Notes under the pieces: model-generated
Told to the model about the DNA's origin: nothing
What the model saw: the letters and a program-made list of their open reading frames with translations, nothing else
Databases searched by the model: none
Translations under genes and position numbers: made by a program
Part shown: piece by piece, positions 6,846 through 23,505 of the stretch
Position numbering within the stretch: position 1 is the stretch's first letter
Layout of the letters: each line of letters opens with the position of its first letter
Virus record (IMG/VR): IMGVR_UViG_3300034024_000020
Coordinates: 32,001 to 96,000 of that record
Origin: a virus
Strand: one strand, 5' to 3'
DNA: 64,000 bases

Positions 6846-6870
6846 GGCGTAATCCTTGGCACCATGATGC

Positions 6871-7290: not shown

Positions 7291-7312
7291 GAAAGTAATC
7301 AGAAAGGCTAAA

Positions 7313-7474: not shown

Positions 7475-7475
7475 T

Positions 7476-7562: not shown

Positions 7563-7568
7563 TTTAAT

Positions 7569-7653
7569 GGGTAGTTAAAGTCGTTTGGATACGGCAGCCT
7601 GACTGTAAATCAGGTCTGTAATGGGAGAGGTTCGAGTCCTCAACTACCCACCA
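7569..7653 (+). tRNA. tRNA-Tyr(GUA), 8/4 fold possible
   Basis: CCTGA-CT GTA AA-TCAGG; GGGTAGTT/AACTACCC. Confidence 0.9.
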
Positions 7654-7662
7654 TTTTAGGTA

Positions 7663-7887
7663 TTGACCATGTCAGTAGTTCAGTTTTTCTTTGATCGCTT
7701 TCACAGAGCGATCCAGATGGATGGAGTTCACAGTTCTAGTCTAAGAAATCAGCTAGACGCTGATGAATGGATACAGGCATATAAGAATACCCTGAGTAAG
7801 AATCAGCTGGACAAATTCGACAAAGAATGGGCTAAGTGCGAAGAAGCGCTTAGACTAGCTCGAAGAAAGGCTGATTTTGGCAAGTAA
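7663..7887 (+). CDS. hypothetical protein
   Basis: ORF track. Confidence 0.55.
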   Translation: MTMSVVQFFFDRFHRAIQMDGVHSSSLRNQLDADEWIQAYKNTLSKNQLDKFDKEWAKCEEALRLARRKADFGK

Positions 7888-8009
7888 TGGCAGCGTGGAG
7901 TCGATAGGGACACGCGTGCGACCTCGTCAAGCACAAAGGGCTAGCGTTTGAGCCTTCACCCTGGACAAGTGAAGGGTAAGTTAGCGACGAGACGTTCCTC
8001 TCTTTAGGT

Positions 8010-8083
8010 GTGGCCGAGGCTGACTTGGTTGAGGCGCTGGTTTGTGGTACCAGAGATAGCGGGTTCGACCCCCGCCGGTCACC
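8010..8083 (+). tRNA. tRNA-His(GUG), U at -1, CCA not encoded
   Basis: CTGGT-TT GTG GT-ACCAG, C73 followed by CCT. Confidence 0.88.
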
Positions 8084-8291
8084 CCTAAGGAGAGCGCTAT
8101 GAGTTACTATGATTTCCCTCAAGGCCCTTCTTTAGAAGACCTTGAAAAGGCAGCTAACGCTATTAAAACGGCACGCTTAGAACAGAACTACGGCTGGGGC
8201 TTTTATGATTATATTCCAGAGCCAACCATTAGAGAGGCTTGGGATTACGTACAAAATCAGAAGTGGCCTGACAGGTAGGTTAGCTGAAAAA

Positions 8292-8325
8292 AGTTCTTGA
8301 CATGATGCCCATTTTTCGATATAAT
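8292..8325 (+). promoter_or_regulatory. phage sigma70-type promoter
   Basis: TTGACA(8297)-N17-TATAAT(8320). Confidence 0.88.
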
Positions 8326-8349
8326 GGGACTTCAAGCGGCGAGGACAAC

Positions 8350-8622
8350 ATGGCGTTCTTTTACAACGAAAATGAACCCTTCACAGGCGGAGTTATTCCT
8401 TACCATAAGGTTAACGCTAACAGGTCCTATTTGAGGCACTATGAGAACAGTTTGTTCTTGCAGTTTATGCTCAATAATGGAACGATGGAAGAACGTCGTC
8501 AGGCTAGCAAGGAACTAGCGATCTGCGATCGCAAAATGTCTCGTATGGAAAAGCACGCCAACTTCATTTGGGATGCTGTTCTTCCCGAGATTGAAAAACT
8601 AAAGAAAAATTGGCACACTTAA
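8350..8622 (+). CDS. hypothetical phage protein
   Basis: GAGGA SD then ATG 8350, downstream of promoter. Confidence 0.7.
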   Translation: MAFFYNENEPFTGGVIPYHKVNANRSYLRHYENSLFLQFMLNNGTMEERRQASKELAICDRKMSRMEKHANFIWDAVLPEIEKLKKNWHT

Positions 8623-8624
8623 GT

Positions 8625-8698
8625 TCGCATTAGCCGAACAAGGTGGACGGAACTGACTGTTAATCAGTGCATGAGAGGTTCGATTCCTCTAATGCGAA
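8625..8698 (+). tRNA. tRNA-Asn(GUU), CCA not encoded
   Basis: ACTGA-CT GTT AA-TCAGT, perfect T arm. Confidence 0.85.
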
Positions 8699-8714
8699 CT
8701 TAATTGTGCTATAA

Positions 8715-8788
8715 TGCCCCATCTTCTAATGGTAAGAAGCGTGGCTCTGAACCACTCAATGCACGTTCGACTCGGGCTGGGGCATCCA
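8715..8788 (+). tRNA. tRNA-Gln(CUG)
   Basis: cloverleaf, CT CTG AA, CCA. Confidence 0.9.
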
Positions 8789-8871
8789 TTTTCAACAGGT
8801 ACTCTTACTGGTGCGTCTGCAAAATTCACTGGTAAGGAAGGGAGCGGTGCAGACGTTCCCGAGAGTTTCAT

Positions 8872-8951
8872 GGCGCGGTCTTCTAACATAGGACTAGGAA
8901 CCCTGACTTTCAATCAGGCCAATGCGGGTTCGAATCCCGTCCGCGCTACCA
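8872..8951 (+). tRNA. tRNA-Glu(UUC)
   Basis: CCTGA-CT TTC AA-TCAGG, CCA. Confidence 0.92.
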
Positions 8952-9025
8952 TTTCAGGAGAATTACAGTGGGCTTTATTCTTTTCCTTATAATTCTCTCA
9001 ATCCTCGTTCGAGGAAATCTTTAAT

Positions 9026-9100
9026 GCTAGTCTAGCTCAGTGGTAGAGCGCCTGCTCGACACGCAGGGGGCGCAGGGTTCAATTCCCTGGACTAGCACCA
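9026..9100 (+). tRNA. tRNA-Val(GAC), C33
   Basis: CCTGC-TC GAC AC-GCAGG. Confidence 0.9.
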
Positions 9101-9101
9101 T

Positions 9102-9177
9102 GCTGGGTTAGCTTAGTGGTAAAGCGCAAGGTTGTGGACCTCCGTCTAGACAGGTTCGACTCCTGTATCTAGTTCCA
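9102..9177 (+). tRNA. atypical tRNA with GUG (His) anticodon, U73
   Basis: TT GTG GA loop, weak anticodon stem, G.U-rich acceptor, CCA. Confidence 0.65.
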
Positions 9178-9357
9178 TTTAGAAAGTACCAAATGAAAAA
9201 GCTTTATACTGGCGTTAACGGACGCAAAGTAGCGCTTGATCTAAGTAAGGTAGAAGCCATTCTGGACGAAGATGATGGTCGTGTAGACCTCTTTAGTTCA
9301 GCCGATTGGTATAAGATTTTAGCAGATTTCGACGAAGTCTATAAAGACTGGTCGCAA

Positions 9358-9434
9358 GCCCGATGAGATGGCTAGGTGAAGTCGCCTCTTTTACATGGAG
9401 GAAATGAGCGGTTCGAATCCGTTATCGGGTACCA
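9358..9434 (+). tRNA. tRNA-Val(UAC)
   Basis: CCTCT-TT TAC AT-GGAGG. Confidence 0.88.
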
Positions 9435-9439
9435 TTTTT

Positions 9440-9528
9440 GGAGTGTACAAGCAGCTGGGAGCTGTCTTCGCTTGGAAAGCGAAAGGTGCTTTAATTAGCA
9501 TCCGATTCGAATTCGGGGCGCTCCGCCA
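9440..9528 (+). tRNA. tRNA-Ser(GGA)
   Basis: TTCGC-TT GGA AA-GCGAA, variable arm, G73. Confidence 0.85.
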
Positions 9529-9534
9529 TATTTT

Positions 9535-9611
9535 GTCGCTGTCGTCTAGTTGGTCTAGGACGCCAGGTTCTCAACCTGGAAACGGGAGTTCGAATCTCCT
9601 CAGCGGTACCA
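9535..9611 (+). tRNA. tRNA-Glu(CUC)
   Basis: CCAGG-TT CTC AA-CCTGG. Confidence 0.92.
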
Positions 9612-9614
9612 CAG

Positions 9615-9690
9615 TTTCAGGATGACTGGCGTCCACCTTTTGTCTGGCCAGACGGGTGTAAAGTGGGTTCAATTCCCTGCCTGAGAGCAA
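9615..9690 (+). ncRNA. tRNA-like element with aberrant extended anticodon arm
   Basis: TTTCAGG/CCTGAGA stem, GGG-TTCAATT-CCC T arm, ends CAA. Confidence 0.45.
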
Positions 9691-9694
9691 TAAT

Positions 9695-9772
9695 GCCGCG
9701 GAGGTGTAGCTGGAGCAAGCACATCGGCTTGAAACCCCGAAGGGTAGGGTTCGATTCCCTGTCGCGGCACCA
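9695..9772 (+). tRNA. atypical tRNA-Phe(GAA)
   Basis: TCGGC-TT GAA AC-CCCGA (C31.C39 mismatch), CCA. Confidence 0.75.
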
Positions 9773-9775
9773 TTA

Positions 9776-9869
9776 TTTAGCTAAGCATCCGACAAGTAGG
9801 TCAATGAAAATTGGGTGTTACGGGGTAGGAAGCTTGATGTTGACTTGAAAGCTACAATGCTCCGCTAAA
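9776..9869 (+). ncRNA. three-way-junction RNA with kissing loops
   Basis: TTTAGC/GCTAAA closes two hairpins whose loops AGGTCAAT and GTTGACTT are complementary. Confidence 0.5.
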
Positions 9870-10191
9870 GGATTATCAATGATTACTTCTTGTGATAAAT
9901 GCTGGTCCTTACCATGTACTTGCGGACATGATTATAAAGGATTAAGTGTAGCCCAAATTAGAGGATTAATCCTACAACTGGAAGCAAGATTGGGTCGAGC
10001 CGCTCTTGAGGATTACGATGAGAGGCAATCTTGGCGATGATTTGGACTATTCTTGTAACAATTTATGCGACGGGTTTTGTTTTTACAATCTATATAGTCG
10101 AGTGGCAATTCTACAGAAGCTTAGGTTTTAATTTAGCCAACATATTTATTACAGCTACAATTTGGCCACTCTTCCTAATTATAGCTCATAT

Positions 10192-10266
10192 GCTACCTTA
10201 GCTCAGTGGAAGAGCACTCCCTTGGTAAGGGAAAGGTCAAGAGTTCAATCCTCTTAGGTAGCACCA
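10192..10266 (+). tRNA. tRNA-Thr(GGU)
   Basis: canonical cloverleaf. Confidence 0.95.
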
Positions 10267-10284
10267 TTAAAGAAAGCACAGATA

Positions 10285-10491
10285 GTGAAGACTAAACGGA
10301 ATAAGTTCAATATCGAGTGGCTTTATGCGAAACAAGTTTGGGATGCGTTGAAAAACGGACTCCCAGTACCTCCCGTACCTAACTACAGTGTATGGGAGAT
10401 TAATGAGAAAACCGGCAAGCAGAAGCTTATCAAAGAGCTTCCAATCGAGCCTATGAGGGTGACTTGCAATGGCAGAAGCTTTCCAGACTAG
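10285..10491 (+). CDS. hypothetical protein
   Basis: ORF track. Confidence 0.45.
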   Translation: MKTKRNKFNIEWLYAKQVWDALKNGLPVPPVPNYSVWEINEKTGKQKLIKELPIEPMRVTCNGRSFPD

Positions 10492-10640
10492 CTTAGAAGT
10501 CTGTCCCACCTGTAACTCCCTAATTACAGATGAGGAATTTGTAGTAAATTGGGGTGGTTGCGGGGCGTGCTTAGACGAAAGTTATGAGCAATATTTAGCA
10601 GAGAAGGGCTTTGTTGAAGAATATAGGCTCTTCTGAATTT

Positions 10641-10674
10641 AGTTCTTGACTTGGAACTGGATTTTTCATATAAT
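10641..10674 (+). promoter_or_regulatory. phage sigma70-type promoter
   Basis: TTGACT(10646)-N17-TATAAT(10669). Confidence 0.85.
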
Positions 10675-10680
10675 GGCTTA

Positions 10681-10872
10681 ATGAAAACGGCATTTTGCAT
10701 TAAATGTGGACATGAATACAACATAAAGCGTTTAGAGTTGGGATACAGAACCTGCTTAGATTGCGGTTCTCCAGTTTTTAGACCTCCTGTTGTTCCAGTC
10801 GCTAAATCGAATTACATTGTTGGTACGATGAGCGAATTGCGCGAGTCTTACAATCACAAAGGACATAAATAA
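10681..10872 (+). CDS. DksA/TraR-like C4 zinc-finger small protein, probably leaderless
   Basis: CIKCG...RLELGYRTCLDC; ATG sits 7 nt after the -10 box. Confidence 0.6.
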   Translation: MKTAFCIKCGHEYNIKRLELGYRTCLDCGSPVFRPPVVPVAKSNYIVGTMSELRESYNHKGHK

Positions 10873-10949
10873 TGAATGATGATAGCATTGTTCTTTTGGC
10901 AGCCATTATAGCCATTGTTATAATGAGCTACTTCTTTAGTAGAGATTAA

Positions 10950-11025
10950 GCTTCGATAGCTCAGTAGGTAGAGCAGAGGACTGAAAATCCTCGTGTCGGC
11001 GGTTCGATCCCGTCTCGAAGCACCA
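10950..11025 (+). tRNA. tRNA-Phe(GAA)
   Basis: canonical cloverleaf. Confidence 0.96.
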
Positions 11026-11026
11026 C

Positions 11027-11103
11027 GGGGCTGTGGTGATTATGGTAAACACATATGCTTGTCAAGCATACATAAGCGGGATCGTTACCCGTCAGCCTCG
11101 CCA
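11027..11103 (+). tRNA. tRNA-Asp(GUC), T loop ATCGTTA
   Basis: TATGC-TT GTC AA-GCATA, G73, CCA. Confidence 0.88.
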
Positions 11104-11271
11104 TTTAAAGACCCGACGATACCGGCTAGGCAAACCGGGACGCAACTTTACTCTTAAAAGAGTAATGATCAAGGCAGGGTTAAATAAGCTGCCCAACAAC
11201 GGCCGGAGTGTCCCGAAAGGGCGATGAGTCCGATTAAGTTACGGAGCGAGGTCGCACTCCATACAGTTTAA

Positions 11272-11347
11272 GCTTCCGAAGCATTGCTGGCGATGCAACC
11301 GCCTTGTAAGCGGACGATAGAGGGTTCGATTCCTTCCGGGAGCACCA
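11272..11347 (+). tRNA. tRNA-Thr(UGU)
   Basis: CT TGT AA loop, CCA. Confidence 0.9.
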
Positions 11348-11350
11348 TTA

Positions 11351-11508
11351 ATTGCTGATAGTTTAATAGGATGGTGAGATAGGGAGTCGACGCCTGATGT
11401 AGCCACGCAATAACTGGTAAGTTTTAGTTCGCGGCTAGAATACTGCCAGCCAAGGGCGAAAACAGTGTCCGCGGAGGGCGCAGATGTGGTAGAAATCCAC
11501 GAAGCAAT
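11351..11508 (+). ncRNA. ~158-nt RNA with tRNA-like ends
   Basis: ATTGCT/AGCAAT closing stem, D-loop-like TAGTTTAATAGG, GTGG-TAGAAAT-CCAC T-like arm. Confidence 0.45.
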
Positions 11509-11703
11509 ACATTTAGAAAGATAAAGATGCAAGATTTAGGTCAGGTTATGAATAATTGGAACCCAAATCCAGTTCGTTTCGATCCTGAAAATATGGATTG
11601 GGGTTACTGGGATGAAACTTGGTCCTATTGGACCGGAGGTTATCAAACGGAAGCCGAAGCCAATAAAGCCTTGCAAGAATATTGCGAACACTATCTATAA
11701 TAA

Positions 11704-11783
11704 CGGCCGGTGGCGGAGCATGGCCCAACGCACGAGATTGCAACCCTCGAAAACCGCCGGTTCAAATCCGGCCCGGTCGTCCA
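11704..11783 (+). tRNA. tRNA-Cys(GCA)
   Basis: TT GCA AC loop, U73, CCA. Confidence 0.9.
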
Positions 11784-11796
11784 TTTTAGGAGTAAT

Positions 11797-11964
11797 ATGA
11801 AAACAGCGGGTTATATTATTTCTGCACTGAGTGTGTTTTTACTGGCAATAGCTGCTACTATTGGTCCAGACGCGGAACCATTTGAGATTTACCTTTGGGC
11901 AGGTGTTATAGCTTCCCTAGTGGGTATGTTTTTGAGATGGCTTTCATATAGATTTGTAGAATAA
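11797..11964 (+). CDS. small 2-TM membrane protein
   Basis: AGGAG SD, ATG 11797, two hydrophobic helices. Confidence 0.65.
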   Translation: MKTAGYIISALSVFLLAIAATIGPDAEPFEIYLWAGVIASLVGMFLRWLSYRFVE

Positions 11965-12040
11965 GGGGGATTAGCTCATCTGGGAGAGCGCCTGCTTTGC
12001 AAGCAGGAGGTGATCGGTTCGAGTCCGATATCCTCCACCA
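11965..12040 (+). tRNA. tRNA-Ala(UGC)
   Basis: canonical, G3.U70. Confidence 0.96.
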
Positions 12041-12058
12041 TATAAAAGGAGTAAGTAA

Positions 12059-12349
12059 CTGAAAAAGGTAGGTTTTACCATTATGACCGCGAACGCTGAC
12101 CTTGAAAGAAAGGTTAAGCAAATCGACGCATTCCTTCTCAAGGGAGAAGAAGTACGCGTAAGCGTTGATGTTAAACGTGGTCAAGGTCGAATTTTCGGTG
12201 CTGCTCTTGACAAGCTGAACCTAATTACGGGGAAGCTTGAAAACGCAAAAGTTATTGCTAAACCGTCCCAAAAGGGTGCGGGTTATCAAACAGTTATACG
12301 GGCCGGTAGCTCAATTGGGAGAGCGCTTGACTTGCAATCAGGAAGATAG
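12059..12349 (+). CDS. translation initiation factor IF3 C-terminal-domain protein, probable CTG start
   Basis: (L)KKVGFTIMTANADLERKVKQIDAFLLKGEEVRVSV resembles IF3-C; AAGGAG SD 7 nt before CTG 12059. Confidence 0.75.
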   Translation: MKKVGFTIMTANADLERKVKQIDAFLLKGEEVRVSVDVKRGQGRIFGAALDKLNLITGKLENAKVIAKPSQKGAGYQTVIRAGSSIGRALDLQSGR

Positions 12350-12374
12350 GGTTCGACTCCCTCCGTGTCCACCA
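12300..12374 (+). tRNA. atypical tRNA-Ala(UGC) overlapping the IF3-C 3' end
   Basis: CTTGA-CT TGC AA-TCAGG, G3.U70, bulged acceptor stem. Confidence 0.75.
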
Positions 12375-12550
12375 TTTTAGGGTTGTAATGAATGCTAGAA
12401 TATGATGATTACACTCTTCTTTTAGATTGTTATGAAGATATAGATGCTTTTTCTAGAGATGGTATGAGATATACTATGACTCCCAGTGAAATGTCATCTT
12501 TAATCGTCATGTTAGACATTCTAAAACCTCAATTAAAAGAATTGCATTAA

Positions 12551-12641
12551 GTGCGCGTGGCGAAAATTAAGGCAGACGCACTAGCTTGAGTAGCTAGCGG
12601 GATAGTATCTCATGAGGGTTCGAGCCCCTCCGTGCACACCA
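12551..12641 (+). tRNA. tRNA-Leu(GAG), U37
   Basis: CTAGC-TT GAG TA-GCTAG, variable arm. Confidence 0.9.
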
Positions 12642-12764
12642 GAGGTAAATATGTATTACGATGAATATCCAGAAACAGAAGGTTGTTTGGGTTATGTAGC
12701 AGGCGCACTTATTGCTGCTGCCGTTATAGGTATCGTAGCACTTATCTTTATATCAATTTCTTGA

Positions 12765-12838
12765 TGCCGATTCTCCTAGTGGTAAGGATGCCGCCTGATT
12801 AGCGGTCTACGGGAGTTCGATTCTCCCATCGGCTACCA
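12765..12838 (+). tRNA. atypical tRNA-Ile(GAU), U37, U1.U72
   Basis: GCCGC-CT GAT TA-GCGGT, CCA. Confidence 0.8.
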
Positions 12839-12840
12839 TT

Positions 12841-12907
12841 TCGACTGAAGACCTAAGGCAGGTCGCCACTGATCCGGAGATAGCTGGTTCGATTCCAGTC
12901 AGTCAAA
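12841..12907 (+). pseudogene. degenerate tRNA with GAU loop
   Basis: intact D (GACC/GGTC) and T arms, 2-bp anticodon stem, no CCA. Confidence 0.5.
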
Positions 12908-12973
12908 CGCAAACCCTACCCAAAGGGTAGCCGACAGGGTTGGAAGGATCGGCTCTAGTTTGCGATATTTTAT

Positions 12974-13047
12974 GCTCCTATAGCTCAATGGTAGAGCCCG
13001 CGGCCGATAACCGCTTGACGGAGGTTCGATTCCTTCTAGGAGTACCA
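12974..13047 (+). tRNA. tRNA-Ile(GAU), C33
   Basis: GCGG-CC GAT AA-CCGC. Confidence 0.88.
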
Positions 13048-13048
13048 T

Positions 13049-13137
13049 GCCCTGCTGGCGGAACCCGGTAGACGCAGCGGTTTCAAACACCGTACCCCAA
13101 TTTGGGGCTGTGGGTTCGACTCCCACGCAGGGTACCA
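13049..13137 (+). tRNA. tRNA-Leu(CAA)
   Basis: type II cloverleaf, CCA. Confidence 0.92.
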
Positions 13138-13148
13138 TAGCTTAAAAT

Positions 13149-13182
13149 AGTTCTTGACTTTGAGTTCAAACTTTCATATAAT
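13149..13182 (+). promoter_or_regulatory. phage sigma70-type promoter
   Basis: TTGACT(13154)-N17-TATAAT(13177). Confidence 0.85.
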
Positions 13183-13290
13183 GGGTCATAAGATGAAAAA
13201 CGGCACAATGCAAATTGCGGCAGAAGCGTTCGGATGAATTGATTCGAACTTTGAGAATTGCATTTGCTAAACTAGCAGGAATTAAATTGA

Positions 13291-13515
13291 ATGACAAGTA
13301 GAGACTTTGCATATTGGCTACAGGGCTTATTCGAGTTGGCCGAGGTTAGGACACTGGATGCAAGGCAAACGGAGTTGATTAAACGGCATCTCCATATGGT
13401 ATTCATCCATGAAATTGATCCTAGCTTTCCAGACGAAGAGCAAGGCCCTTTAACCGCCGCGCATAACGGGGTTCGTCCCGGCGGCCTAATTGCGAAGTGC
13501 TTATATGACTTATAA
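13291..13515 (+). CDS. hypothetical protein (DFxxWLxG family)
   Basis: MTSRDFAYWLQG. Confidence 0.65.
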   Translation: MTSRDFAYWLQGLFELAEVRTLDARQTELIKRHLHMVFIHEIDPSFPDEEQGPLTAAHNGVRPGGLIAKCLYDL

Positions 13516-13690
13516 AGATTTTGCAGCTTGGCTCGAAGGAGTCATTGATAGTAATCCGGAAGGATTAGACGCAGATAAGTTAAAGATTATTTCTGGAAAG
13601 ATTAAGACTTTGACTTTTCCAGGTGAACCAAAAAAGCAGCCGGGTGACGGTGCTTGGGTAAATCCTTATCCAAACGCAGTACGCTGCTAA
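13505..13690 (+). CDS. hypothetical protein, paralog of the preceding ORF
   Basis: MTYKDFAAWLEG. Confidence 0.6.
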   Translation: MTYKDFAAWLEGVIDSNPEGLDADKLKIISGKIKTLTFPGEPKKQPGDGAWVNPYPNAVRC

Positions 13691-13698
13691 GAGCATAT

Positions 13699-13773
13699 AT
13701 GGGTCAGGTCGATCGGGGATGACAGCAGCCTCCAAAACTGCCGAGCAGGGTTCGAGTCCCTGGACCCATGCCA
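13699..13773 (+). tRNA. tRNA-Trp(CCA)
   Basis: CT CCA AA loop, G73, CCA. Confidence 0.88.
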
Positions 13774-13857
13774 TTTAAGGAAAAAATGGATCCAATTTCA
13801 ATTCTAGTCATCGTTCTAATTATTCTAGCGATTGTTTACTTCGCTAAGCGAGTTTGA

Positions 13858-13934
13858 TGCGGGGACAAGCCTTGGTAGGCTAGACTGTCTCATAAGCAGT
13901 TTCATTGTGAGTTCGATTCTCACCTCCGCCACCA
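13858..13934 (+). tRNA. initiator-like tRNA-Met(CAU)
   Basis: U1.C72 mismatch, GCGGGG acceptor, A11:U24; lacks 3 G-C anticodon pairs. Confidence 0.8.
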
Positions 13935-13951
13935 TTTCAAAAGGACTATCT

Positions 13952-14443
13952 ATGTTGGATCAAGCAATAAAAGCTATCAAGGCTTCCAGCCAAAGTAGCA
14001 GCGTCTACATTGGATGCGACTCTGTACGATTCAAGAAGAATGTCAACGGTCGTCAGCAAAGCTTTGCTCGATATGCAACCGTAGTCGTTCTTCACATGGA
14101 TAGCCTTCACGGTTGTCAGCTCTTCTACAAGGAAGATGTTCTGCCTGATTATGGTAAAAAGACTGAAAGTCTCTTTAACCGGCTCATGCAAGAGGCTACC
14201 TTCGCTATTGAAGTAGCTGGCGAAATCATTCCACATCTAGATGACCGACATCTAGAAATCCACCTTGACATTAACCCAAGTGAGGCTCACGCTTCCAATC
14301 AGGCGGCTAAAGCCGCAATCGGTTATGTTTTAGGTACAACTGAAATTAGACCTAAGATCAAGCCTGAAGCGTTTGCTGCGATGTTTGCAGCGGATCGGGT
14401 TTGTAACGGTAAGCTTAAGAACCAAGTCTTCAATCGAGGCTGA
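13952..14443 (+). CDS. RNase H-like YkuK (DUF458) family protein
   Basis: VYIGCDS, YATVVVLH, RLMQE, EIHLDIN, IKPEAFAA..AD; AAGGA SD before ATG 13952. Confidence 0.8.
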   Translation: MLDQAIKAIKASSQSSSVYIGCDSVRFKKNVNGRQQSFARYATVVVLHMDSLHGCQLFYKEDVLPDYGKKTESLFNRLMQEATFAIEVAGEIIPHLDDRHLEIHLDINPSEAHASNQAAKAAIGYVLGTTEIRPKIKPEAFAAMFAADRVCNGKLKNQVFNRG

Positions 14444-14517
14444 GACCCACTAGCCGCCTGGGTTACTTGATTGGATAGGTATGCCGGGTGCTAAAGGCGG
14501 ATTGCCCGGCATTACCA
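14431..14517 (+). ncRNA. two-hairpin RNA with loop-loop complementarity, ends ACCA
   Basis: CAATCGAG/CTTGATTG and ATGCCGGG/CCCGGCAT stems; CCGCC pairs with GGCGG. Confidence 0.45.
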
Positions 14518-14642
14518 GTTAGGAAATAATATGCTACGAATTATTGGTTACATTATCAGTGGTGAATGGATGACTAAGTTCAATAAACCAGGAGATGTGT
14601 ATCTTAGATCAGACGGAACATGGTCTGATAGATAAGCTTTTT

Positions 14643-14714
14643 GCCCCGGCTCACTGGAAGAGGCCCGACGCTACGAACGTTGGTGGGAAGGTTCGAGTCC
14701 TTTTCGGGGTACCA
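14643..14714 (+). tRNA. tRNA-Arg(ACG), compact non-canonical fold
   Basis: CCGACG-CT ACG AA-CGTTGG, CCA. Confidence 0.82.
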
Positions 14715-14721
14715 TAATCAC

Positions 14722-14803
14722 ACCCTTGTAGCCGGTTCAGGTTTCGACCCTGTTATCCGTAATGGAGCTGCAAATGTAGGTTCGACTCCTATCAAGGGTG
14801 CCA
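14722..14803 (+). tRNA. D-armless tRNA-like RNA with UCG (Arg) loop
   Basis: ACCCTTG/CAAGGGT-G-CCA, canonical T arm, CAGG-TT TCG AC-CCTG. Confidence 0.6.
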
Positions 14804-14809
14804 TAAAAT

Positions 14810-14843
14810 AGTTCTTGACATTGTACTGAATTTTTCATATAAT
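14810..14843 (+). promoter_or_regulatory. phage sigma70-type promoter upstream of the large ncRNA
   Basis: TTGACA(14815)-N17-TATAAT(14838). Confidence 0.88.
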
Positions 14844-14869
14844 GGGATATCAAAACGACGGAAATAACA

Positions 14870-15716
14870 AGTTTGGCCGTATGGGGTCATTAGGGTAAGG
14901 GTGGCGACACCCCCAAAGCAGGGAAGCTTACATACCTGCGCTCGCAAGAGTCCATCTATACAAGCCTACATCACGCCCGAAAGGGTGTCTTCGTGAAGAG
15001 CGGAGATAGTCGTGAAGTGAGGTTGAGGAAAGAATTCTGGTCGATGTCCCGCAAGGAAGGCAGGCTGGAGAAGAACGGGGTAGTAGCCGTCTCTCAGCAC
15101 ACTAAACTCGCGAACGATGATGGTAAATGGTAGTGCCATTGTTCGATGCTTAGCGGCAAAGGGCTTCGGTGCAATTCAAACGGTTGGTGGGAGTCACACC
15201 CACGTAGATCGTGAAGAATGATTGAGTAGGTTTAGCAGACCAAAAGATAGCATAGGCGTGTTGTATTTCGTAGATTAATAGTCTGCGAAGCGACAGAGGT
15301 AGCACGTCTTGGTAAGTTAATGCAATTTGTTCAATGGTAGAACATTAGTCTATGAAACTGAGAGTGTTGGTTCGATTCCAACATTGCAAGCTATAAAAAC
15401 GCAAAGACTACCTCGGTATACAGCGAAAGTCATCTAATGCCGGACTAAAGAATTCGGCCTAGGAAAGCTCGCAAGGCAGACCTAGTTCATGGTAGATCGC
15501 TCATAAATCTCTTAGCGGAGGTTGAACGGCTCGCAAGGTCGGTGGGAAGGAAATCGTGGAGTAGTTGTATATGTCACCGCAAAAGCTAGCGGTATATCAA
15601 ATGAGCGATGATGTTCATTAGTGGCAACCCTGCCTCTGGAAACCTGATTAAGCACCTCGCAAAAGGTCCGCGTACGGTCAGAAGATTGAACAATTAATAG
15701 GTGTATTCTCAGCCTA
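14870..15716 (+). ncRNA. giant structured RNA, GOLLD-like (ends approximate)
   Basis: ~850 nt without a + strand ORF of 60 aa or more, own promoter, many GNRA/UUCG-capped hairpins, embedded tRNA, within a phage tRNA array. Confidence 0.72.
15320..15390 (+). tRNA. tRNA-like domain (anticodon AUG) embedded in the large RNA
   Basis: TGCAAT/ATTGCA, GTTC/GAAC D arm, TTAGT-CT ATG AA-ACTGA, GTTGG-TTCGATT-CCAAC; no CCA. Confidence 0.7.
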
Positions 15717-15733
15717 TGTTTTAACGAGTTTTT

Positions 15734-15767
15734 ATGTCGCCCAGGTTCGGAAGAAAGCAAGCGGCAT
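15734..15767 (+). ncRNA. mini RNA matching SRP (4.5S) helix 8
   Basis: CAGG-TTC-GGAA-GAA-AGCA on an ATGTCGC/GCGGCAT stem. Confidence 0.6.
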
Positions 15768-15770
15768 CAA

Positions 15771-15842
15771 GCCCCCATCGAAGGAGCGACGTTTGGCCTT
15801 CTAAGCCGAAATGTGTGGGTTCGAGTCCCTCTGGGGGTTCCA
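15771..15842 (+). tRNA. tRNA-Arg(UCU), compact non-canonical fold
   Basis: TTTGGC-CT TCT AA-GCCGAA, CCA. Confidence 0.82.
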
Positions 15843-15857
15843 TTTAAGGAGATGTAA

Positions 15858-16064
15858 GTGAACCTAATTTCTTGGATAGTTTTAGGCGGTTATGTCTTTA
15901 TTGCAGCATGTGTTCTGGCAGCGCTTCGAGTGGGAGCAGCTAAGGAAGGCGTGAAGCTCAATTGGGTCTATTTGTTCATTGCAGCAATTTGGCCTTTGTG
16001 GATAGTATTTTACCTTTGGGTTCTAGTATATAGCTGGGCCAATAGAGATAGAACGGTAGCGTAG
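15858..16064 (+). CDS. small 2-TM membrane protein
   Basis: AAGGAG SD; hydrophobic, IWP motif. Confidence 0.65.
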   Translation: MNLISWIVLGGYVFIAACVLAALRVGAAKEGVKLNWVYLFIAAIWPLWIVFYLWVLVYSWANRDRTVA

Positions 16065-16129
16065 CTTAAAGGCGAAGCCACCCGCTCATAACGGGCAGAG
16101 TGTGAGTTCGAGTCTCACCGCTACCACCA
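16055..16129 (+). tRNA. tRNA with CAU anticodon (elongator Met or Ile2)
   Basis: canonical cloverleaf, CCA. Confidence 0.9.
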
Positions 16130-16142
16130 TAGAAAGGCCACC

Positions 16143-16391
16143 ATGGGCGATTGGGCAGATAACGCTCTAGACAGGTTTTTAAGCGGACATTGGTCACCTT
16201 TTAATGGTGATACTAGAAAGCTTCGTCGAAGAGACCGGAAACGTCTCAAAGTAATTCAATGTCGCCATTGTGGTGCTAAACCACTGCGAATTGAAGAATT
16301 TGAGGAGAATGCTTGGCATTTAGCCGAGTACGACGAGAATAACGTTCTAACGCGGCATGTTTGTAAAATGAAGACCTTCAGAAATGTTTGA
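16143..16391 (+). CDS. hypothetical zinc-binding protein
   Basis: MGDWAD start, CxxC...HxC. Confidence 0.6.
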   Translation: MGDWADNALDRFLSGHWSPFNGDTRKLRRRDRKRLKVIQCRHCGAKPLRIEEFEENAWHLAEYDENNVLTRHVCKMKTFRNV

Positions 16392-16507
16392 CTTTCAGAT
16401 TAGAGCTGATAGGTGGCAGCCACCAGCCTGGCCCCTTTGGGGGTCACTAATCGTATTAATTGTGTTTACGGTCCTACACATATTTGGTCTCGTAGGATAA
16501 GATTAAT

Positions 16508-16595
16508 GGAGGGGTAACCTGATAGGATCAGGGCTCGCCTGCTACGCGAAGCGGAGTGAAATACCTCTGGGTTTCGATTACCCACCCTTCCTCCA
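16508..16595 (+). tRNA. tRNA-Ser(GCU), 6-bp D stem, U73
   Basis: TCGC-CT GCT AC-GCGA, variable arm, CCA. Confidence 0.82.
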
Positions 16596-16747
16596 TACTA
16601 GGAGATAGATTATGTTTAAAACGTTTTTGGCATTTATTGCTGGCTTTGTTAAAGGCCGAAAGAGCAAGGAAACAAAGGTGGATGGGACGCGAACCAGCCC
16701 GAGATATACGGGTCCCCGTATCTAATCCACGAGCATTAAGATTAATT

Positions 16748-16822
16748 GCGTAAGTAGCTCAGGGGAAGAGCTTCTCGTTGCCAACGAGACGGTCGTGGGT
16801 TCGAATCCCATCTTACGCTCCA
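16748..16822 (+). tRNA. tRNA-Gly(GCC)
   Basis: canonical, U73. Confidence 0.95.
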
Positions 16823-16828
16823 TTATTA

Positions 16829-16943
16829 GGTAGGGCACATCCCTTAAATCACCGATTTGAGTTCGGAAGCCTAAGGATGGGACAAATCTGGATTAGCGTT
16901 ATCACGGTGCACTTAGTGATTAAAACGGCAGATACCCCATCCA
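16829..16943 (+). ncRNA. multi-stem RNA ending in CCA
   Basis: CATCC/GGATG, CTTAAATC/GATTTGAG, ATCTG/CAGAT, ATCAC/GTGAT stems between two Gly tRNAs. Confidence 0.4.
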
Positions 16944-16952
16944 TCAATAATT

Positions 16953-17035
16953 GCGGCTAGTTGCACATAGGGCGTGCGTTAGGTTTCCACCCTAATTCCA
17001 TCGAGAGCGGAGTTCGATTCTCCCTAGCCGCTCCA
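16953..17035 (+). tRNA. tRNA-Gly(UCC), 8/4 fold with long variable region
   Basis: GCGGCTAG/CTAGCCGC, GGAG/CTCC T stem, TT TCC AC loop. Confidence 0.82.
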
Positions 17036-17191: not shown

Positions 17192-17225
17192 AGCCCTCCA
17201 AGGAGACTTGGAGGGCTTTTTCTTT
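17192..17225 (+). terminator. intrinsic terminator closing the RNA-gene region
   Basis: AGCCCTCCAAG-GAGA-CTTGGAGGGCT + T run. Confidence 0.88.
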
Positions 17226-17278: not shown

Positions 17279-17312
17279 AGTTCTTGACATGTGACTTAGA
17301 AAGCCGTATAAT
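17279..17312 (+). promoter_or_regulatory. phage sigma70-type promoter
   Basis: TTGACA(17284)-N17-TATAAT(17307). Confidence 0.88.
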
Positions 17313-17336: not shown

Positions 17337-17654
17337 ATGTCAAAGCCAATTACACCAGCAGAAGTTGCAGAATATCAAGCTAAGATATTTCCCGCAGAAG
17401 TTTTTGATGCTTTTAATGAACTAATTGCAAAAGACTTTGTAAATGGTAGTTCTACGGTAAAGCAACCTGCAGTAAAAGCTCTAATCATAGAAAAGATTGC
17501 GGCTAATACCCCTGCAGGAGAAACTCCTAGGCCTTTTGAATATAAATGGCTTAATATCGAGGAAGTCTATCGCAAGGCTGGATGGAAGGTAGAATACGAT
17601 AAGCCAGGGTACAACGAAACCTATGATGCTTATTTTGTTTTTAGGAAGAAATAA
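17337..17654 (+). CDS. hypothetical phage protein
   Basis: first ORF after promoter. Confidence 0.75.
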   Translation: MSKPITPAEVAEYQAKIFPAEVFDAFNELIAKDFVNGSSTVKQPAVKALIIEKIAANTPAGETPRPFEYKWLNIEEVYRKAGWKVEYDKPGYNETYDAYFVFRKK

Positions 17655-18217
17655 TGCCCGAGAGATTTTTCGCCTCTGACCATCACTTTGGTCACGCTAA
17701 CATTCTAAACTTTACACGTGCCGACGAAGTAACGCCGGTACGTAGCTTTGCGTCTGTTGAGGAAATGGACGAGCACATGATCGAGCGTCATAATAGCGTC
17801 GTCGGTCCGAATGATCGCGTCTATTTTCTGGGCGATCTAGCAATCCCGAGACGTGGTCTTCAGCAAGTTAAGCGGCTGAATGGCAAAAAGCGCCTCATCA
17901 TGGGTAATCATGACGTCTTTAAGAACAAAGACTATTATGATTGCGGCATTGAGATACTAGGTGCGTTCAGAAAGTTTGACGACTTCGTCGTCACGCACAT
18001 TCCTGTACACTCCGATAGCATTTCTAAACGTTGGTTTAGGAACGTACACGGACACACCCACACTAACAATGTGCGGCTTCCTCGCGGAGTCGACGCTAGG
18101 ACGGGTGAAATTCTGTACAGCGATAAGGCTGATCCTCGCTATGTCTGCGTTTGCGTGGAGCAGCTAGATGACTACACTCCTATTCACATTGATGATCTAA
18201 GAAAGAGGTTTAAATGA
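17654..18217 (+). CDS. calcineurin-like metallophosphoesterase
   Basis: SDHHFGH, LGD, GNHD, THIP, HGHTH. Confidence 0.9.
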   Translation: MPERFFASDHHFGHANILNFTRADEVTPVRSFASVEEMDEHMIERHNSVVGPNDRVYFLGDLAIPRRGLQQVKRLNGKKRLIMGNHDVFKNKDYYDCGIEILGAFRKFDDFVVTHIPVHSDSISKRWFRNVHGHTHTNNVRLPRGVDARTGEILYSDKADPRYVCVCVEQLDDYTPIHIDDLRKRFK

Positions 18218-18552
18218 ATCAGCAAGAAGCAACTGCAACTATCGCCAATCTTCTAACTAGTGCTCGTACTTCTATCGAAACAGCACTAAGCATGGGACGG
18301 GAACATAATGTTCCGGTAGATCTTAATATAGTAGGTCTAGGCGGAGATGATATGTGGTACGTTTCTGAACAAGATTGGCTAGAGGGGCGACTTGAAGAGT
18401 TGAAGTATGATTATCCGGAAGAAACGGGTGAAGATTATGAAGCTGAAGTAAAGCGTATCAACGATGAACTTGCAGAAATTCGTTCTGCGGGTGGATTTGA
18501 CTCTTACGGATACAAACAAACGGGCTGGATGAGCTCCTCAACTAATTGTTAA
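18214..18552 (+). CDS. hypothetical protein with C-terminal WMSSSTNC
   Basis: ORF coupled to the phosphoesterase. Confidence 0.75.
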   Translation: MNQQEATATIANLLTSARTSIETALSMGREHNVPVDLNIVGLGGDDMWYVSEQDWLEGRLEELKYDYPEETGEDYEAEVKRINDELAEIRSAGGFDSYGYKQTGWMSSSTNC

Positions 18553-18565
18553 GAAAGGAAATACA

Positions 18566-18805
18566 ATGAACAGTGATCTACAGCGAATCAAGACTCTCGA
18601 AGCCGAACTGGCTGCAATGCGAGTTCAGGGTAAGCAGAACGCTACCTCTCGCCTTGCCGAGCTTGTGAGGGAAATTAAGGAGAAGGTTGCAGAAGCTACA
18701 GAGCTTGCTAAGACTTTCGAGCTTCCTTTCTCTATGAACATGGAAAGCTATATGCCGGAAGATGCTGATTACGATTATTGGCAGTCTTCTTCTATGTATT
18801 GCTAA
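18566..18805 (+). CDS. hypothetical protein with C-terminal WQSSSMYC
   Basis: AAGGA SD; shares tail motif with the preceding ORF. Confidence 0.75.
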   Translation: MNSDLQRIKTLEAELAAMRVQGKQNATSRLAELVREIKEKVAEATELAKTFELPFSMNMESYMPEDADYDYWQSSSMYC

Positions 18806-18817
18806 AAGGAATTAACT

Positions 18818-19738
18818 GTGCCGTATCTTGTTATTGGTAGTCATGCGCTTAATCGCATTCGTACAACTCGGGGACATGCTTGTCAGCAGCCGCGAGACAT
18901 GGACATTATTGCCGATTTCGATGCGGCACAGTCAGTTCTAAATGGGGCGGGTTGTCACATCCAGTATCCCATTAACGGTGGCAAAACTCTCTTTGGTAAG
19001 AACCCCAAGGGCGACATTTACGAGATTGAAATTGCCTGGCCGGGCTCAACTGGTGAAGAGCTTCTTAACTATTGGTTTACCAATAAAGAGACTGCATTTT
19101 ACCCTTCTCTTTATGCTTCTCTGAACGTGCTCTACGCTCTGAAAATGTCTCACCGCTATCTGCGCAATTCTCCTCATTTCCTCAAGACCATGAGGGATAT
19201 TAAGGAAATGCGCGCAATGGGCGCGACCATCCCAGATAACCTTCATTCTTGGTTCAAGCGTAGGGAAAAGGAAACGTATGACTATTCCCACCCGAATCTT
19301 AGCGTTAATTCTGGGGCTTTCTTCAGTGGCGACGGGGTACATTATGTCTATGATCATGACAGCCTCCATGAGGCTGTAGCGGTCTACGGATCGCCTGTTT
19401 ATAAGCTTTATCTTCGTGATGGAGCAGAAGTTCAGGTTGATAAAAATAAATGGCTTATGCTTAACGATATTGTTAAGCAGACTGCGGTTTATGAGGAAGC
19501 ATGTGTTCTTGCGCTAGAGCGGAGCATCATTCCTTATCCCGGTAAGTTGACTGAAGATCGAGCGTTTGAAGTTGCTTTAATCAAGGTTGCTTCTAGTATT
19601 ACTAGCGGCTGGTTCCGCCAATATGCTTGGGAGAATTTCGACGAAGTAATGAAACTTCACAAGCAGCTTCCTTCTTATGTAGATAGATTTACTAAAGCGC
19701 TTGAGAACGGTCAAGTTAAACATTTTGGAGAAAAATAA
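18818..19738 (+). CDS. phage protein with nucleotidyltransferase-like N-terminus
   Basis: VIGSHAL...RDMDII (GS...DxD); also KMSHRY, YDHDSLH, EE..VLALER, TSGWFR. Confidence 0.7.
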   Translation: MPYLVIGSHALNRIRTTRGHACQQPRDMDIIADFDAAQSVLNGAGCHIQYPINGGKTLFGKNPKGDIYEIEIAWPGSTGEELLNYWFTNKETAFYPSLYASLNVLYALKMSHRYLRNSPHFLKTMRDIKEMRAMGATIPDNLHSWFKRREKETYDYSHPNLSVNSGAFFSGDGVHYVYDHDSLHEAVAVYGSPVYKLYLRDGAEVQVDKNKWLMLNDIVKQTAVYEEACVLALERSIIPYPGKLTEDRAFEVALIKVASSITSGWFRQYAWENFDEVMKLHKQLPSYVDRFTKALENGQVKHFGEK

Positions 19739-21516: not shown

Positions 21517-21550
21517 AGTTCTTGACATGTGCCCCCATTATGTGTATAAT
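21517..21550 (+). promoter_or_regulatory. phage sigma70-type promoter
   Basis: TTGACA(21522)-N17-TATAAT(21545). Confidence 0.88.
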
Positions 21551-22300: not shown

Positions 22301-22610
22301 AGTATTTAGTAGAATAGTTCATCAGACTGATGATAAGCAAATAAGATTAACAATCAATGAATTCAGGGGTGTGGAATATATGCACCTCAGAGAATATTAT
22401 CAAGATTTTGAGGAAAATTGGTGCCCTTCTAAAAAGGGAGTAGCTATGCCTCTTGATCTGAATAACAGCAGAGAACTGTTTGCGGGATTAGTAGAAATTC
22501 TATCCCTAGCAGAGAGTAAAGACGTCATTTTAGAGCACTTTGAAGAGCTCATTAGGAACACTTATCCAGATGAAGAACTTTCTAGATTACGCGAGCAAAA
22601 AGTATCATGA
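22290..22610 (+). CDS. PC4-like ssDNA-binding protein
   Basis: EFRGVEYMHLREYY...W.PSKKGVAM. Confidence 0.8.
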   Translation: MSDEVFSRIVHQTDDKQIRLTINEFRGVEYMHLREYYQDFEENWCPSKKGVAMPLDLNNSRELFAGLVEILSLAESKDVILEHFEELIRNTYPDEELSRLREQKVS

Positions 22611-23505
22611 GGGTAACCCCATCATACCTGATGACGTGTTTGATCGTCTAGCAGAGACACATGGATATGAAGATGTGGGTCACAGCGTTCAACACGGTGT
22701 GGCTCACTACTTTCCGATGTGGTCACTCAAGAAGTGCTATGTTGGTGAGAAACCAATCGTCCTAGTTGGCGATACTATCGAAACCCCCAAACTCGACGGA
22801 GCTGCTATCTCTTTACTTTACGTAGAGGGACAATTAGTCATGGCCTTAACACGTGGAAACGGTAAACGCGGTGAGGACATAACAGATAAAATCAAATTAC
22901 TAGTAGAGTCTTTTATACCGACATACGAGCCTATAATTCAAATTATAGGTGAAATAGCTGCTAAAAAGACTATTCCTAATGCTAGGAATTATGCAGCTGG
23001 AGCTTTAAACCTCAAAGATATAGAAGAATTCAAAACCAGAGAAGTTACCTTTATTGCTTACGGTTTGCAAGTTTCTGAAAATAAATCTGGTTGTTCAGAA
23101 ACTTATGTACAAGATATGCAATCCCTTAGCAATATGGGTTTTAACACAGTTTTAGATGGAGAATGGAATGAATACCCGCAAGATGGCCGCGTTTATCGGC
23201 TCAATTCAAATCAAGCCTACGATAGGGCTGGTTATACTAGTTCTCACCCTCGCGGAGCCTTTGCTCTCAAAGTACGGCCACAAGGAGTTAGCACAACTCT
23301 CAAAGGAGTTGAATGGCAAGTTGGAAGGACTGGCACTGTTAATCCGGTAGCCATCTTAGAGCCTGTTAAAGTAGGGGACGCCATGGTAAGTCGTGCAACC
23401 CTACACAATATGAAGTATATTGAAGAGCTAGGCCTGGAGATAGGATGCGAAGTAGAGATTATTCGCTCGGGGGAAATCATACCTCGAGTTGTAAGGAGAT
23501 TATAA
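22570..23505 (+). CDS. ligA: NAD-dependent DNA ligase subunit A (adenylation + OB domains)
   Basis: KLDG, ALTRGNG, RNYAAG, WQVGRTG, RATLHN, RSGEIIP. Confidence 0.93.
   Translation: MKNFLDYASKKYHEGNPIIPDDVFDRLAETHGYEDVGHSVQHGVAHYFPMWSLKKCYVGEKPIVLVGDTIETPKLDGAAISLLYVEGQLVMALTRGNGKRGEDITDKIKLLVESFIPTYEPIIQIIGEIAAKKTIPNARNYAAGALNLKDIEEFKTREVTFIAYGLQVSENKSGCSETYVQDMQSLSNMGFNTVLDGEWNEYPQDGRVYRLNSNQAYDRAGYTSSHPRGAFALKVRPQGVSTTLKGVEWQVGRTGTVNPVAILEPVKVGDAMVSRATLHNMKYIEELGLEIGCEVEIIRSGEIIPRVVRRL

Follow-up and report, generated by a model that had tools for sequence, protein, structure and literature searches.

Two adjacent small proteins that share little beyond the same kind of tail, encoded immediately ahead of a larger enzyme-like protein, raise the question of whether tail and enzyme belong together and, if so, what the one does for the other. 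We address this question in a 64,000-nucleotide (nt) stretch of a phage genome (IMG/VR record IMGVR_UViG_3300034024_000020, positions 32,001 to 96,000; hereafter the window, to which all coordinates refer, while genome-wide counts cover the whole 115,703-bp phage genome), in which tail protein 1 and tail protein 2 end in GWMSSSTNC and YWQSSSMYC and are followed by a 306-amino-acid (aa) protein. The original prediction for this locus had read a metallophosphoesterase, the two tail proteins and the 306-aa protein as one operon, and had offered two functions: a module in which a nucleotidyltransferase writes a mark on the tails that the phosphoesterase erases, or the repair of transfer RNA (tRNA) 3′ ends with the tailed proteins as partners. 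All four open reading frames (ORFs) lie where that prediction had placed them and both tails are readable, and the overall similarity of the two small proteins is as weak as it had said (pairwise BLASTP expect value (E) 0.079). Our analysis indicates that the tail proteins and the 306-aa enzyme almost certainly form a conserved, two-part phage module, and suggests, at a probability that we put at roughly 0.38, that the tail is both the handle by which the enzyme holds its client proteins and the serine acceptor of the group that it transfers. A corpus of 8.4 million searchable papers and preprints yielded none on these families, the terminal motif, the pairing or the RB69 ORF names.

Pairing of tail proteins and enzyme

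Among 80 viral contigs fetched through their copy of the enzyme, 74 carry at least one tail ORF. The six loci without a motif ORF comprise three that are cut off upstream, two with variant tails directly upstream (SSNCY and W-N-D-S-T-C) and one clear exception. Nearly all tail ORFs lie on the same strand as the enzyme gene and no more than 2 kilobases (kb) upstream of it, the nearest often ending a few bases before the enzyme start. Tail ORFs are approximately 140-fold denser in the 3.5 kb ahead of the enzyme gene, on its strand (0.55 per kb), than elsewhere (0.0039 per kb). In a separate collection, that of bacterial and archaeal assemblies, the enzyme was found on only eight contigs from metagenome-assembled genomes (MAGs), which were binned with Saccharibacteria and Bacteroidota; tail ORFs lie upstream in seven of the eight.

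The pairing also holds when approached from the tail. The reverse pattern G-W-x-x-S-S-x-x-C-TAA, searched in DNA, gave 120 matches, of which 47 coincide with the end of an ORF of 40 aa or more and 73 do not. Where ORF-ending matches were followed by enough DNA, the enzyme is encoded within 4 kb downstream in 24 of 33, as against 0 of the 73 that end no such ORF. When the ORFs of all loci were clustered, no third conserved gene emerged, the next family being present in at most 18 of 80. The co-occurrence across phages on which the original prediction had staked itself is hence found in the viral loci, in the MAG loci and in the reverse search alike and, judged from this genomic pairing, enzyme and tailed proteins genuinely belong together in function.

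The terminal tail

In all six frames the whole phage genome contains 1,904 ORFs that reach 30 aa or more; W-x(0-2)-SS-x(0-4)-C-stop is matched by only two of them, the two tail proteins, which excludes chance. The distinct tail ORFs from the fetched loci (n = 142) have a median length of 83 aa and a median net charge of −8. Their tails are mostly spaced W-x-x-S-S-x-x-C (105 of 142), with W-x-S-S-x-C (18 of 142) and W-x-x-S-S-C (11 of 142) as further classes; the residue before the tryptophan is usually glycine, serine occupies position −4 in 129 of 142, and the terminal cysteine is present in every one of the 142.

Similarity among the tail proteins extends beyond the tail itself, because 78 of the 121 that were collected match phrog_899 and because 93 of the 121, both window proteins included, still fall into one BLAST cluster once their last 12 residues have been removed. 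They have a common body, in which a long helix precedes a short G-h-x-[FY]-x-h segment, after which come an acidic, disordered linker rich in tyrosine and glycine and then the tail. We modelled tail protein 2 together with the enzyme as a read-through fusion (AlphaFold2; window positions 18566-19735, in which the TAA is read as glycine and followed by four residues and the enzyme, with 10 paired natural read-through rows in the alignment), and its prediction comprises a helix at residues 2-50, an F-x-L-P-F segment, a disordered acidic linker and the tail.

A profile of the tail family was searched against 1.84 billion representative proteins; 1,902 of them match at E ≤ 1e-3, and 492 still do so at E ≤ 1e-10. 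The motif is the exact C-terminus in 148 of the 150 best representatives and is followed by one extra residue in the other two, so that being the last residues of the protein is part of the conserved feature. Some tail proteins carry an additional N-terminal SH3-like or WYL_2 domain, and a genome may also hold tail paralogues at a distance from its enzyme. Between one and six paralogues accompany each enzyme, and single loci mix all three spacing classes beside one enzyme. In its strictly terminal position, its occurrence on proteins with extra domains and its presence on distant paralogues, the tail behaves, as far as sequence can tell, like a portable tag.

We additionally observed a subgroup of longer tail proteins (124-196 aa; loci L049, L104, L107, L114, L156, L183 and L204) that consist of an SH3-like beta-barrel, the family helix and a G-W-x-[ST]-S-S-x-x-C tail and lack the acidic linker. 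Members of this SH3-like subgroup are often dispersed, or occur without the enzyme in the fetched DNA.

The enzyme

The 306-aa protein matches two Pfam families, PF23942 (DUF7277; 41.3 bits, E 2.6e-10) and PF23940 (DUF7275; 215.5 bits, E 7.9e-64), exceeding the curated cut-off of 27 bits that applies to each, and it matches phrog_2141 over residues 4-304 with an E of 1.8e-94. Homologues number more than 2,200 in a metagenome protein collection and occur in 734 phage records. Carriers include T4-like phages of Escherichia, Aeromonas and Acinetobacter, Pseudomonas Otagovirus, Ralstonia phage RSP15 and Phapecoctavirus-like phages, and the module is further carried by jumbo phages, Ackermannviridae and Vibrio phages.

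In a 38-member alignment, G7, A10, D27 and D29 are invariant, S8 and E69 are conserved in at least 90%, and the helical lobe holds a second set of invariant positions: K109, H112, R113, R149, D179, H180, D181, H184, E226, E227, E234, R235 and an S-I-T-S-G-W-F-R block. G7-S8 and D27-x-D29 correspond to the GS...DxD motif from which the original prediction had proposed a nucleotidyltransferase, and the G-S, D-x-D and h-E-h motifs are kept in divergent jumbo-phage and Phapecoctavirus-like copies. The Pol-beta superfamily is recognized by h-G-[GS], [DE]-h-[DE]-h, a third carboxylate on the next strand and an alpha-beta-alpha-beta-alpha-beta core; in the enzyme we find G7-S8, D27-x-D29, E69 as third carboxylate and, in the model, the corresponding order of strands and helices.

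The Pol-beta fold that the original prediction had called for is predicted with high confidence. The AlphaFold2 model of the enzyme has a mean predicted local distance difference test score (pLDDT) of 92.6 and a predicted template modelling score (pTM) of 0.88, and its top Foldseek match is MenT1 (E 3e-4). An exhaustive structural aligner likewise placed MenT1 first (Z 10.0, 153 residues aligned, root-mean-square deviation 4.2), ahead of Megavirus poly(A) polymerase (Z 9.2), ANT(2″) (Z 9.1), MenT3/TglT (Z 9.0), MenT4 (Z 8.4), LnuA (Z 8.0) and AbiEi (Z 6.8). The neighbours of the enzyme in a protein atlas built on a language model are ANT(2″)-type, DUF6036 and AbiEii clusters, and the nearest named clusters carry PF10706. 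We therefore read the enzyme, on the basis of its modelled fold and intact motifs, as a probably active O-nucleotidyltransferase of the MenT/ANT structural group, with an enlarged and highly conserved helical lobe of its own.

The enzyme has no Pfam match to PF01743, the family of class II CCA-adding enzymes and poly(A) polymerases, and CCA-enzyme structures matched it weakly in Foldseek (probability 0.2-0.5, template modelling score (TM) ~0.2; TM 0.42-0.43 in the Atlas rows). Readings of DUF7275 as an HD or HEPN domain were rejected, as no such fold match is listed and His120 of the would-be R-x6-H is not conserved. The family profile matched no sequence of a solved structure at E ≤ 1, and the PADLOC defence models matched neither the enzyme nor the tail proteins. 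The enzyme family is near neutral, with a median isoelectric point (pI) of 6.3.

The GTG at 18818 is supported as the true start of the enzyme by the alignment of its homologues and by the AAGGA ribosome-binding site, which lies 7 nt ahead of it; the GTG itself follows the stop of tail protein 2 by 12 nt. A public gene call (P0001, 279 aa) has an ATG inside the gene as its start, so that it omits 18818-18898 and with it the G-S motif. Distant homologues in actinophages (L210 3390-4471, Cucurbita gp15-gp16; L211 3336-4417, WXIN) are approximately 260 aa long and lack the S-I-T-S-G-W-F-R block. These actinophage enzymes share an overlapping downstream gene of approximately 100 aa that ends in W-E-x-x-E and may encode a different partner.

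Relation to known systems

As we see it, the module pairs a nucleotidyltransferase with small partner proteins; its nearest known systems by gene order and, as far as the model can be trusted, by structure are the MenAT and AbiE toxin–antitoxin modules. With these it shares, in the model, a bilobed Pol-beta fold (Z 8.4-10.0, enzyme residues 1-274), together with the G-S and D-x-D motifs and the third carboxylate. Its helical lobe also has conserved lysine and aspartate residues, of which K109 and D179/D181 are candidate equivalents of MenT3 K189 (motif III) and D211 (motif IV) (PMC7450476). MenAT further resembles it in having a small partner gene directly upstream (MenA1, 68 aa, for MenT1; PMC7450476). 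On the other hand, PF08843 (DUF1814/AbiEii) matched neither the enzyme at E ≤ 0.1 nor anything in a six-frame search of the phage genome, and the helical lobe is larger than in MenAT and AbiE and has invariant motifs of its own. MenT3 carries, two residues before D80, the active-site serine S78 that is auto-phosphorylated on antitoxin binding (PMC7450476, PMC11375011), whereas position 25 of the phage enzyme, two before D27, is a proline (family consensus R-x-P-x-D-x-D), so that by positional analogy no serine or threonine stands at the S78-equivalent site. The phage module also resides on lytic phages and not in cellular toxin–antitoxin loci, it has one to six partner paralogues, and its C-terminal W-x-x-S-S-x-x-C tag is obligatory in the phage partners but unknown in MenA or AbiEi.

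The small-molecule O-nucleotidyltransferases ANT(2″)-Ia and LnuA/LinB are alike in their N-terminal nucleotidyltransferase lobe and core size, as well as through PF10706 in the nearest named clusters. The phage enzyme differs in that it has no sequence-family match to them, that its conserved helical lobe is far larger and that a protein partner is dedicated to it. In existing catalogues the enzyme belongs to DUF7277 (PF23942) plus DUF7275 (PF23940) and to phrog_2141, and the tail proteins to phrog_899 or phrog_23943, all of them entries without a function.

Genomic context

The phage is a distant T5-like one, an assignment that follows from its DNA ligase subunit, which is approximately 44% identical to those of T5-like Klebsiella phages. 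The features around the module are collected in Table 1.

Table 1. Features of the window in and around the module, in genomic order
Feature	Coordinates	Strand	Details
tRNA array, 35 genes, all on one strand	4044-17035	+	3′-CCA encoded in 30 of 35
Terminator-like hairpin and T-run at the end of the tRNA region	17192-17217	+	11-pair stem with 7 G-C pairs, then TTTTTCTTT
Consensus sigma-70 promoter, TTGACA-17 nt-TATAAT	17284-17312	+	12 of 12 matches
105-aa ORF, first of the unit	17337-17654	+	ORF listing
Metallophosphoesterase, calcineurin-like, 187 aa	17654-18217	+	phrog_547, E 3.5e-47; Metallophos_2, E 0.0014
Tail protein 1, 112 aa, acidic, ends GWMSSSTNC	18214-18552	+	phrog_899, E 0.0043
Tail protein 2, 79 aa, acidic, ends YWQSSSMYC	18566-18805	+	phrog_899, E 4.7e-8; phrog_23943, E 1.1e-7
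Predicted nucleotidyltransferase, 306 aa, GTG start	18818-19738	+	DUF7277, residues 4-85; DUF7275, residues 104-283; phrog_2141
Radical SAM protein, 281 aa	20241-21086	+	C-x3-C-x2-C at residues 45-52; TIGR00048, E 3.7e-19 (far below cut-off); phrog_27142, E 3e-91
MazG-like nucleoside triphosphate pyrophosphohydrolase, 136 aa	21079-21489	+	phrog_4856, E 3.5e-7; weak Pfam MazG match
NAD-dependent DNA ligase fragment, 321 aa, T5-type 'subunit A'-like	22540-23505	+	~44% identity to Klebsiella T5-like phages

The module in this phage is transcribed from a consensus early promoter. The original prediction had placed the four genes behind a single promoter after the tRNA region, and a perfect site does lie there; the unit is longer than described, however, as it has an additional leading ORF of 105 aa and probably runs on from 17337 to approximately 21489. 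The next perfect promoter downstream is at 21522-21550, the MazG-like gene is the last before it, and the ORFs between the two perfect promoters are tightly packed or overlapping: the stop codon of the phosphoesterase and the start codon of tail protein 1 overlap in ATGA, and two small ORFs separate the enzyme gene from the radical SAM gene. The tRNA array includes two unusual calls, a tRNA-His with anticodon ATG (15320-15391) and a tRNA-Arg with anticodon ACG (14642-14713), and the 321-aa ligase fragment suggests a split ligase as in T5.

The phosphoesterase has readable D-x-H, GD, GNHD and GH-x-H motifs and a weak PdeM-like match. Members of its family come as close as 10 kb or less to the enzyme in just 3 of 83 loci, with distances that vary, and the family occurs in 1,778 phage records, mainly of Vibrio and Salmonella phages, as compared with the 734 records of the enzyme, which are mainly of Escherichia, Acinetobacter and Aeromonas phages; on this rarity and differing taxonomic distribution we rejected it as a conserved partner. 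In 19 of 88 loci, which represent at least four lineages (L022, L026, L047 and 16 others), an unrelated Metallophos family (PF00149, ~252 aa) is encoded no more than 10 kb from the module, and approximately three quarters of the loci have no metallophosphoesterase of any kind within that distance. The phosphoesterase is thus co-transcribed with the module in this phage and is not a conserved part of it, phosphoesterases in general being occasional neighbours. Of the writer, substrate and eraser scheme in the original prediction, the pairing of enzyme and tailed proteins stands and the phosphoesterase eraser finds no support.

The radical SAM protein was rejected as a maturase of the tails, as a homologue is present in 1 of 83 loci and as it is a distant relative of the RNA methyltransferases RlmN and Cfr; it may be a phage RNA C-methyltransferase that adjoins the 35-tRNA array. 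Adjacency to tRNA genes was likewise rejected as a rule: only 12 of 60 loci have one at 10 kb or less from the enzyme, and most of the tRNA genes here already encode their CCA. RNA-repair genes do occur near the module, with Rnl1 in ten loci, the polynucleotide kinase–phosphatase PNKP in nine and an Rnl2-type ligase in four. In Ralstonia phage RSP15, RnlB lies 73 nt downstream of the enzyme (L001 5003-6025), and two longer proteins, each a fusion or a merged gene call, join the enzyme to an Rnl2-type RNA ligase (PF09414, PF21189; P0121, 630 aa) and to an RNase H (PF00075; P0089, 464 aa). The RNA-repair neighbours come largely from one jumbo-phage clade, and early regions of this kind are generally rich in nucleic-acid enzymes. 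For tRNA 3′-end repair, the second function in the original prediction, the MenT-like fold, the ligase and RNase H fusions and RnlB in RSP15 remain as hints, and the scarcity of tRNA genes near the enzyme and the encoded CCA ends count against it.

Discussion

What the comparisons hold is a conserved nucleotidyltransferase, catalytically intact by appearance, in obligatory genetic pairing with terminally tagged proteins, and from there we infer how the two might work together. According to the reading that we favour, the enzyme would recognize the small proteins as clients by their C-terminal tail, anchoring the tail tryptophan together with the free carboxylate and thiol of the terminal cysteine. 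It would then transfer a nucleotide-derived group, a nucleoside monophosphate (NMP) or possibly the first nucleotide of a primer, onto a hydroxyl of the conserved serine pair, much as MenT and ANT(2″) nucleotidylylate the oxygen of a 3′-OH or of a sugar hydroxyl, and the small proteins, once modified, would have their role in the early part of host takeover. We favour this client model because many paralogues and several spacings accompany one enzyme, because the tag is also found on proteins with other domains, because tail genes lie away from the enzyme and because relatives of the enzyme nucleotidylylate hydroxyls; one enzyme with up to six paralogues in all three spacings fits one enzyme acting on many clients better than a one-to-one antitoxin. 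Several enzymes of the Pol-beta fold nucleotidylylate protein side chains, among them GlnE, GlnD, DrrA, MntA and CitX, the last on a small acidic carrier protein. The Hailong nucleotidyltransferase HalB is covalently linked to an oligo-dA of its own synthesis (PMC13434031). GlnE/GlnD, MntA (MNT-HEPN), CitX and HalB are analogues in mechanism only, in that a nucleotide-derived group is placed on a hydroxyl of a dedicated protein; homology to them extends no further than the superfamily, and their acceptor is a tyrosine or an internal serine, not a C-terminal tag.

Several observations weigh against this client model. The distant actinophage enzymes (Gordonia phage Cucurbita gp15 and Mycobacterium phage WXIN) have no tail ORFs nearby, which means that the enzyme fold can work without tail clients. 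In the read-through fusion the tail was not docked on the enzyme, with residues 61-83 at pLDDT below 50 (linker and tail 40-44), a weak test given that the C-terminus was not free, the linker was five residues long and the alignment was shallow. The fusion also scored below the enzyme alone (pTM 0.75 versus 0.88), with a 49-residue helix of the tail protein predicted confidently. A serine acceptor by itself would leave the obligatory terminal cysteine with its free carboxylate unexplained, and in the closest structural relatives small upstream proteins control an activity on tRNA 3′ ends, a parallel that favours regulation over modification.

Such a regulatory reading comes close behind the client model. 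It holds that the enzyme is a MenT-like nucleotidyltransferase of RNA or tRNA 3′ ends, acting on host or phage RNA, and that the small upstream proteins control it in the manner of antitoxins, their helix binding the enzyme as MenA1 binds MenT1 and their tail serving as a pseudo-substrate, with the serine hydroxyl in place of the ribose 3′-OH, or as a thiol–carboxylate metal chelator; the paralogues would tune timing or specificity. The best fold matches (MenT1, MenT3/TglT and MenT4, with AbiEi lower) and the AbiEii and DUF6036 language-model neighbours speak for it, as does the small ORF directly upstream, often coupled, which mirrors the 68-aa MenA1 ahead of MenT1 (PMC7450476). Unrelated MenA antitoxins work at the active site by inducing auto-phosphorylation (PMC11375011). 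The existence of tail-less actinophage enzymes, the suitability of an obligatory terminal cysteine with a free carboxylate for metal chelation, and the RNA-related hints given above (P0121, P0089, RnlB in RSP15 and, in several lineages, Rnl1 or PNKP no more than 10 kb away) are further points in favour. Yet it would be unusual for an antitoxin to come in one to six paralogues, to share its tail with proteins that carry extra domains and to be encoded in part at a distance from the enzyme; moreover, the PF08843 match and the serine or threonine two residues before D-x-D are missing, tRNA genes are seldom nearby, and a family of median pI 6.3 is unlike the electropositive surfaces of MenT.

The remaining alternatives appear less probable. 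The tail might instead dock a host protein, such as a protease, chaperone or metalloenzyme, while the enzyme acts elsewhere in the same pathway. Docking through an acidic tail with an aromatic or terminal residue at its end is common, the single-stranded DNA-binding protein SSB and T7 gp2.5 being examples; the genes of the tail proteins lie in early regions of a host-takeover type, and the model left the tail undocked on the enzyme, if only in the weak test described. We nevertheless find host docking unlikely, as it would need one and the same pocket across Escherichia, Acinetobacter, Aeromonas, Pseudomonas, Ralstonia, Vibrio, Saccharibacteria and Bacteroidota, and as the constant partner of the tail is the enzyme. 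S-x-x-C at the extreme C-terminus is also the spacing of small lanthionine rings and of aminovinyl-cysteine (AviCys) motifs. In a pathway like those of ribosomally synthesized and post-translationally modified peptides, the enzyme would activate the tail serine as an O-NMP or phosphate, elimination would give dehydroalanine, and addition of the cysteine thiol would close a lanthionine- or AviCys-type macrocycle. This is very improbable in our estimation, even though it would explain both the serine at −4 and the terminal cysteine: the likeness to lanthipeptides is confined to the S-x-x-C-COOH spacing; no dehydratase, cyclase (LanB/C/M/KC) or LanD-type decarboxylase is conserved in the phage loci; W-x-x-S-S-C and W-x-S-S-x-C would change the ring size and yet adjoin the same enzyme; and we know of no precedent for a Pol-beta nucleotidyltransferase that activates serine for elimination. 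Equally poor are the odds of a conserved triad in which a metallophosphoesterase removes the mark that the nucleotidyltransferase has written on the tail. Co-transcription of the phosphoesterase, the overlap of its stop with the start of tail protein 1 and the second Metallophos family near some modules are in its favour, and the scarcity of the window family near the enzyme, the many loci without any metallophosphoesterase and the differing phage distribution have largely refuted it.

The module is present in hundreds of sequenced phages (T4-like phages, jumbo phages, Ackermannviridae, Otagovirus, Phapecoctavirus-like phages and the distant T5-like phage here), and a tag that is strictly terminal, is anchored by four residues and travels with a single enzyme offers experiments a clean handle. 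Taken phage-wide, we think it possible, if rather doubtful, that a MenT-like enzyme nucleotidylylates, primes with an oligonucleotide or cyclizes a portable W-x-x-S-S-x-x-C-COOH tag on approximately 2,000 clusters of small early proteins, yielding nucleotide-bearing or ring-closed protein effectors that would be used in host takeover. If the small proteins are regulators, phages too would use the MenAT/AbiE mechanism, known from bacterial defence, in the form of antitoxin-like control over an enzyme that modifies RNA ends. If they are clients, phages modify their own proteins with a MenT-type nucleotidyltransferase, which as a form of phage protein modification would be new, and there is a realistic chance, well short of even, that the module represents such a new type of phage protein tagging.

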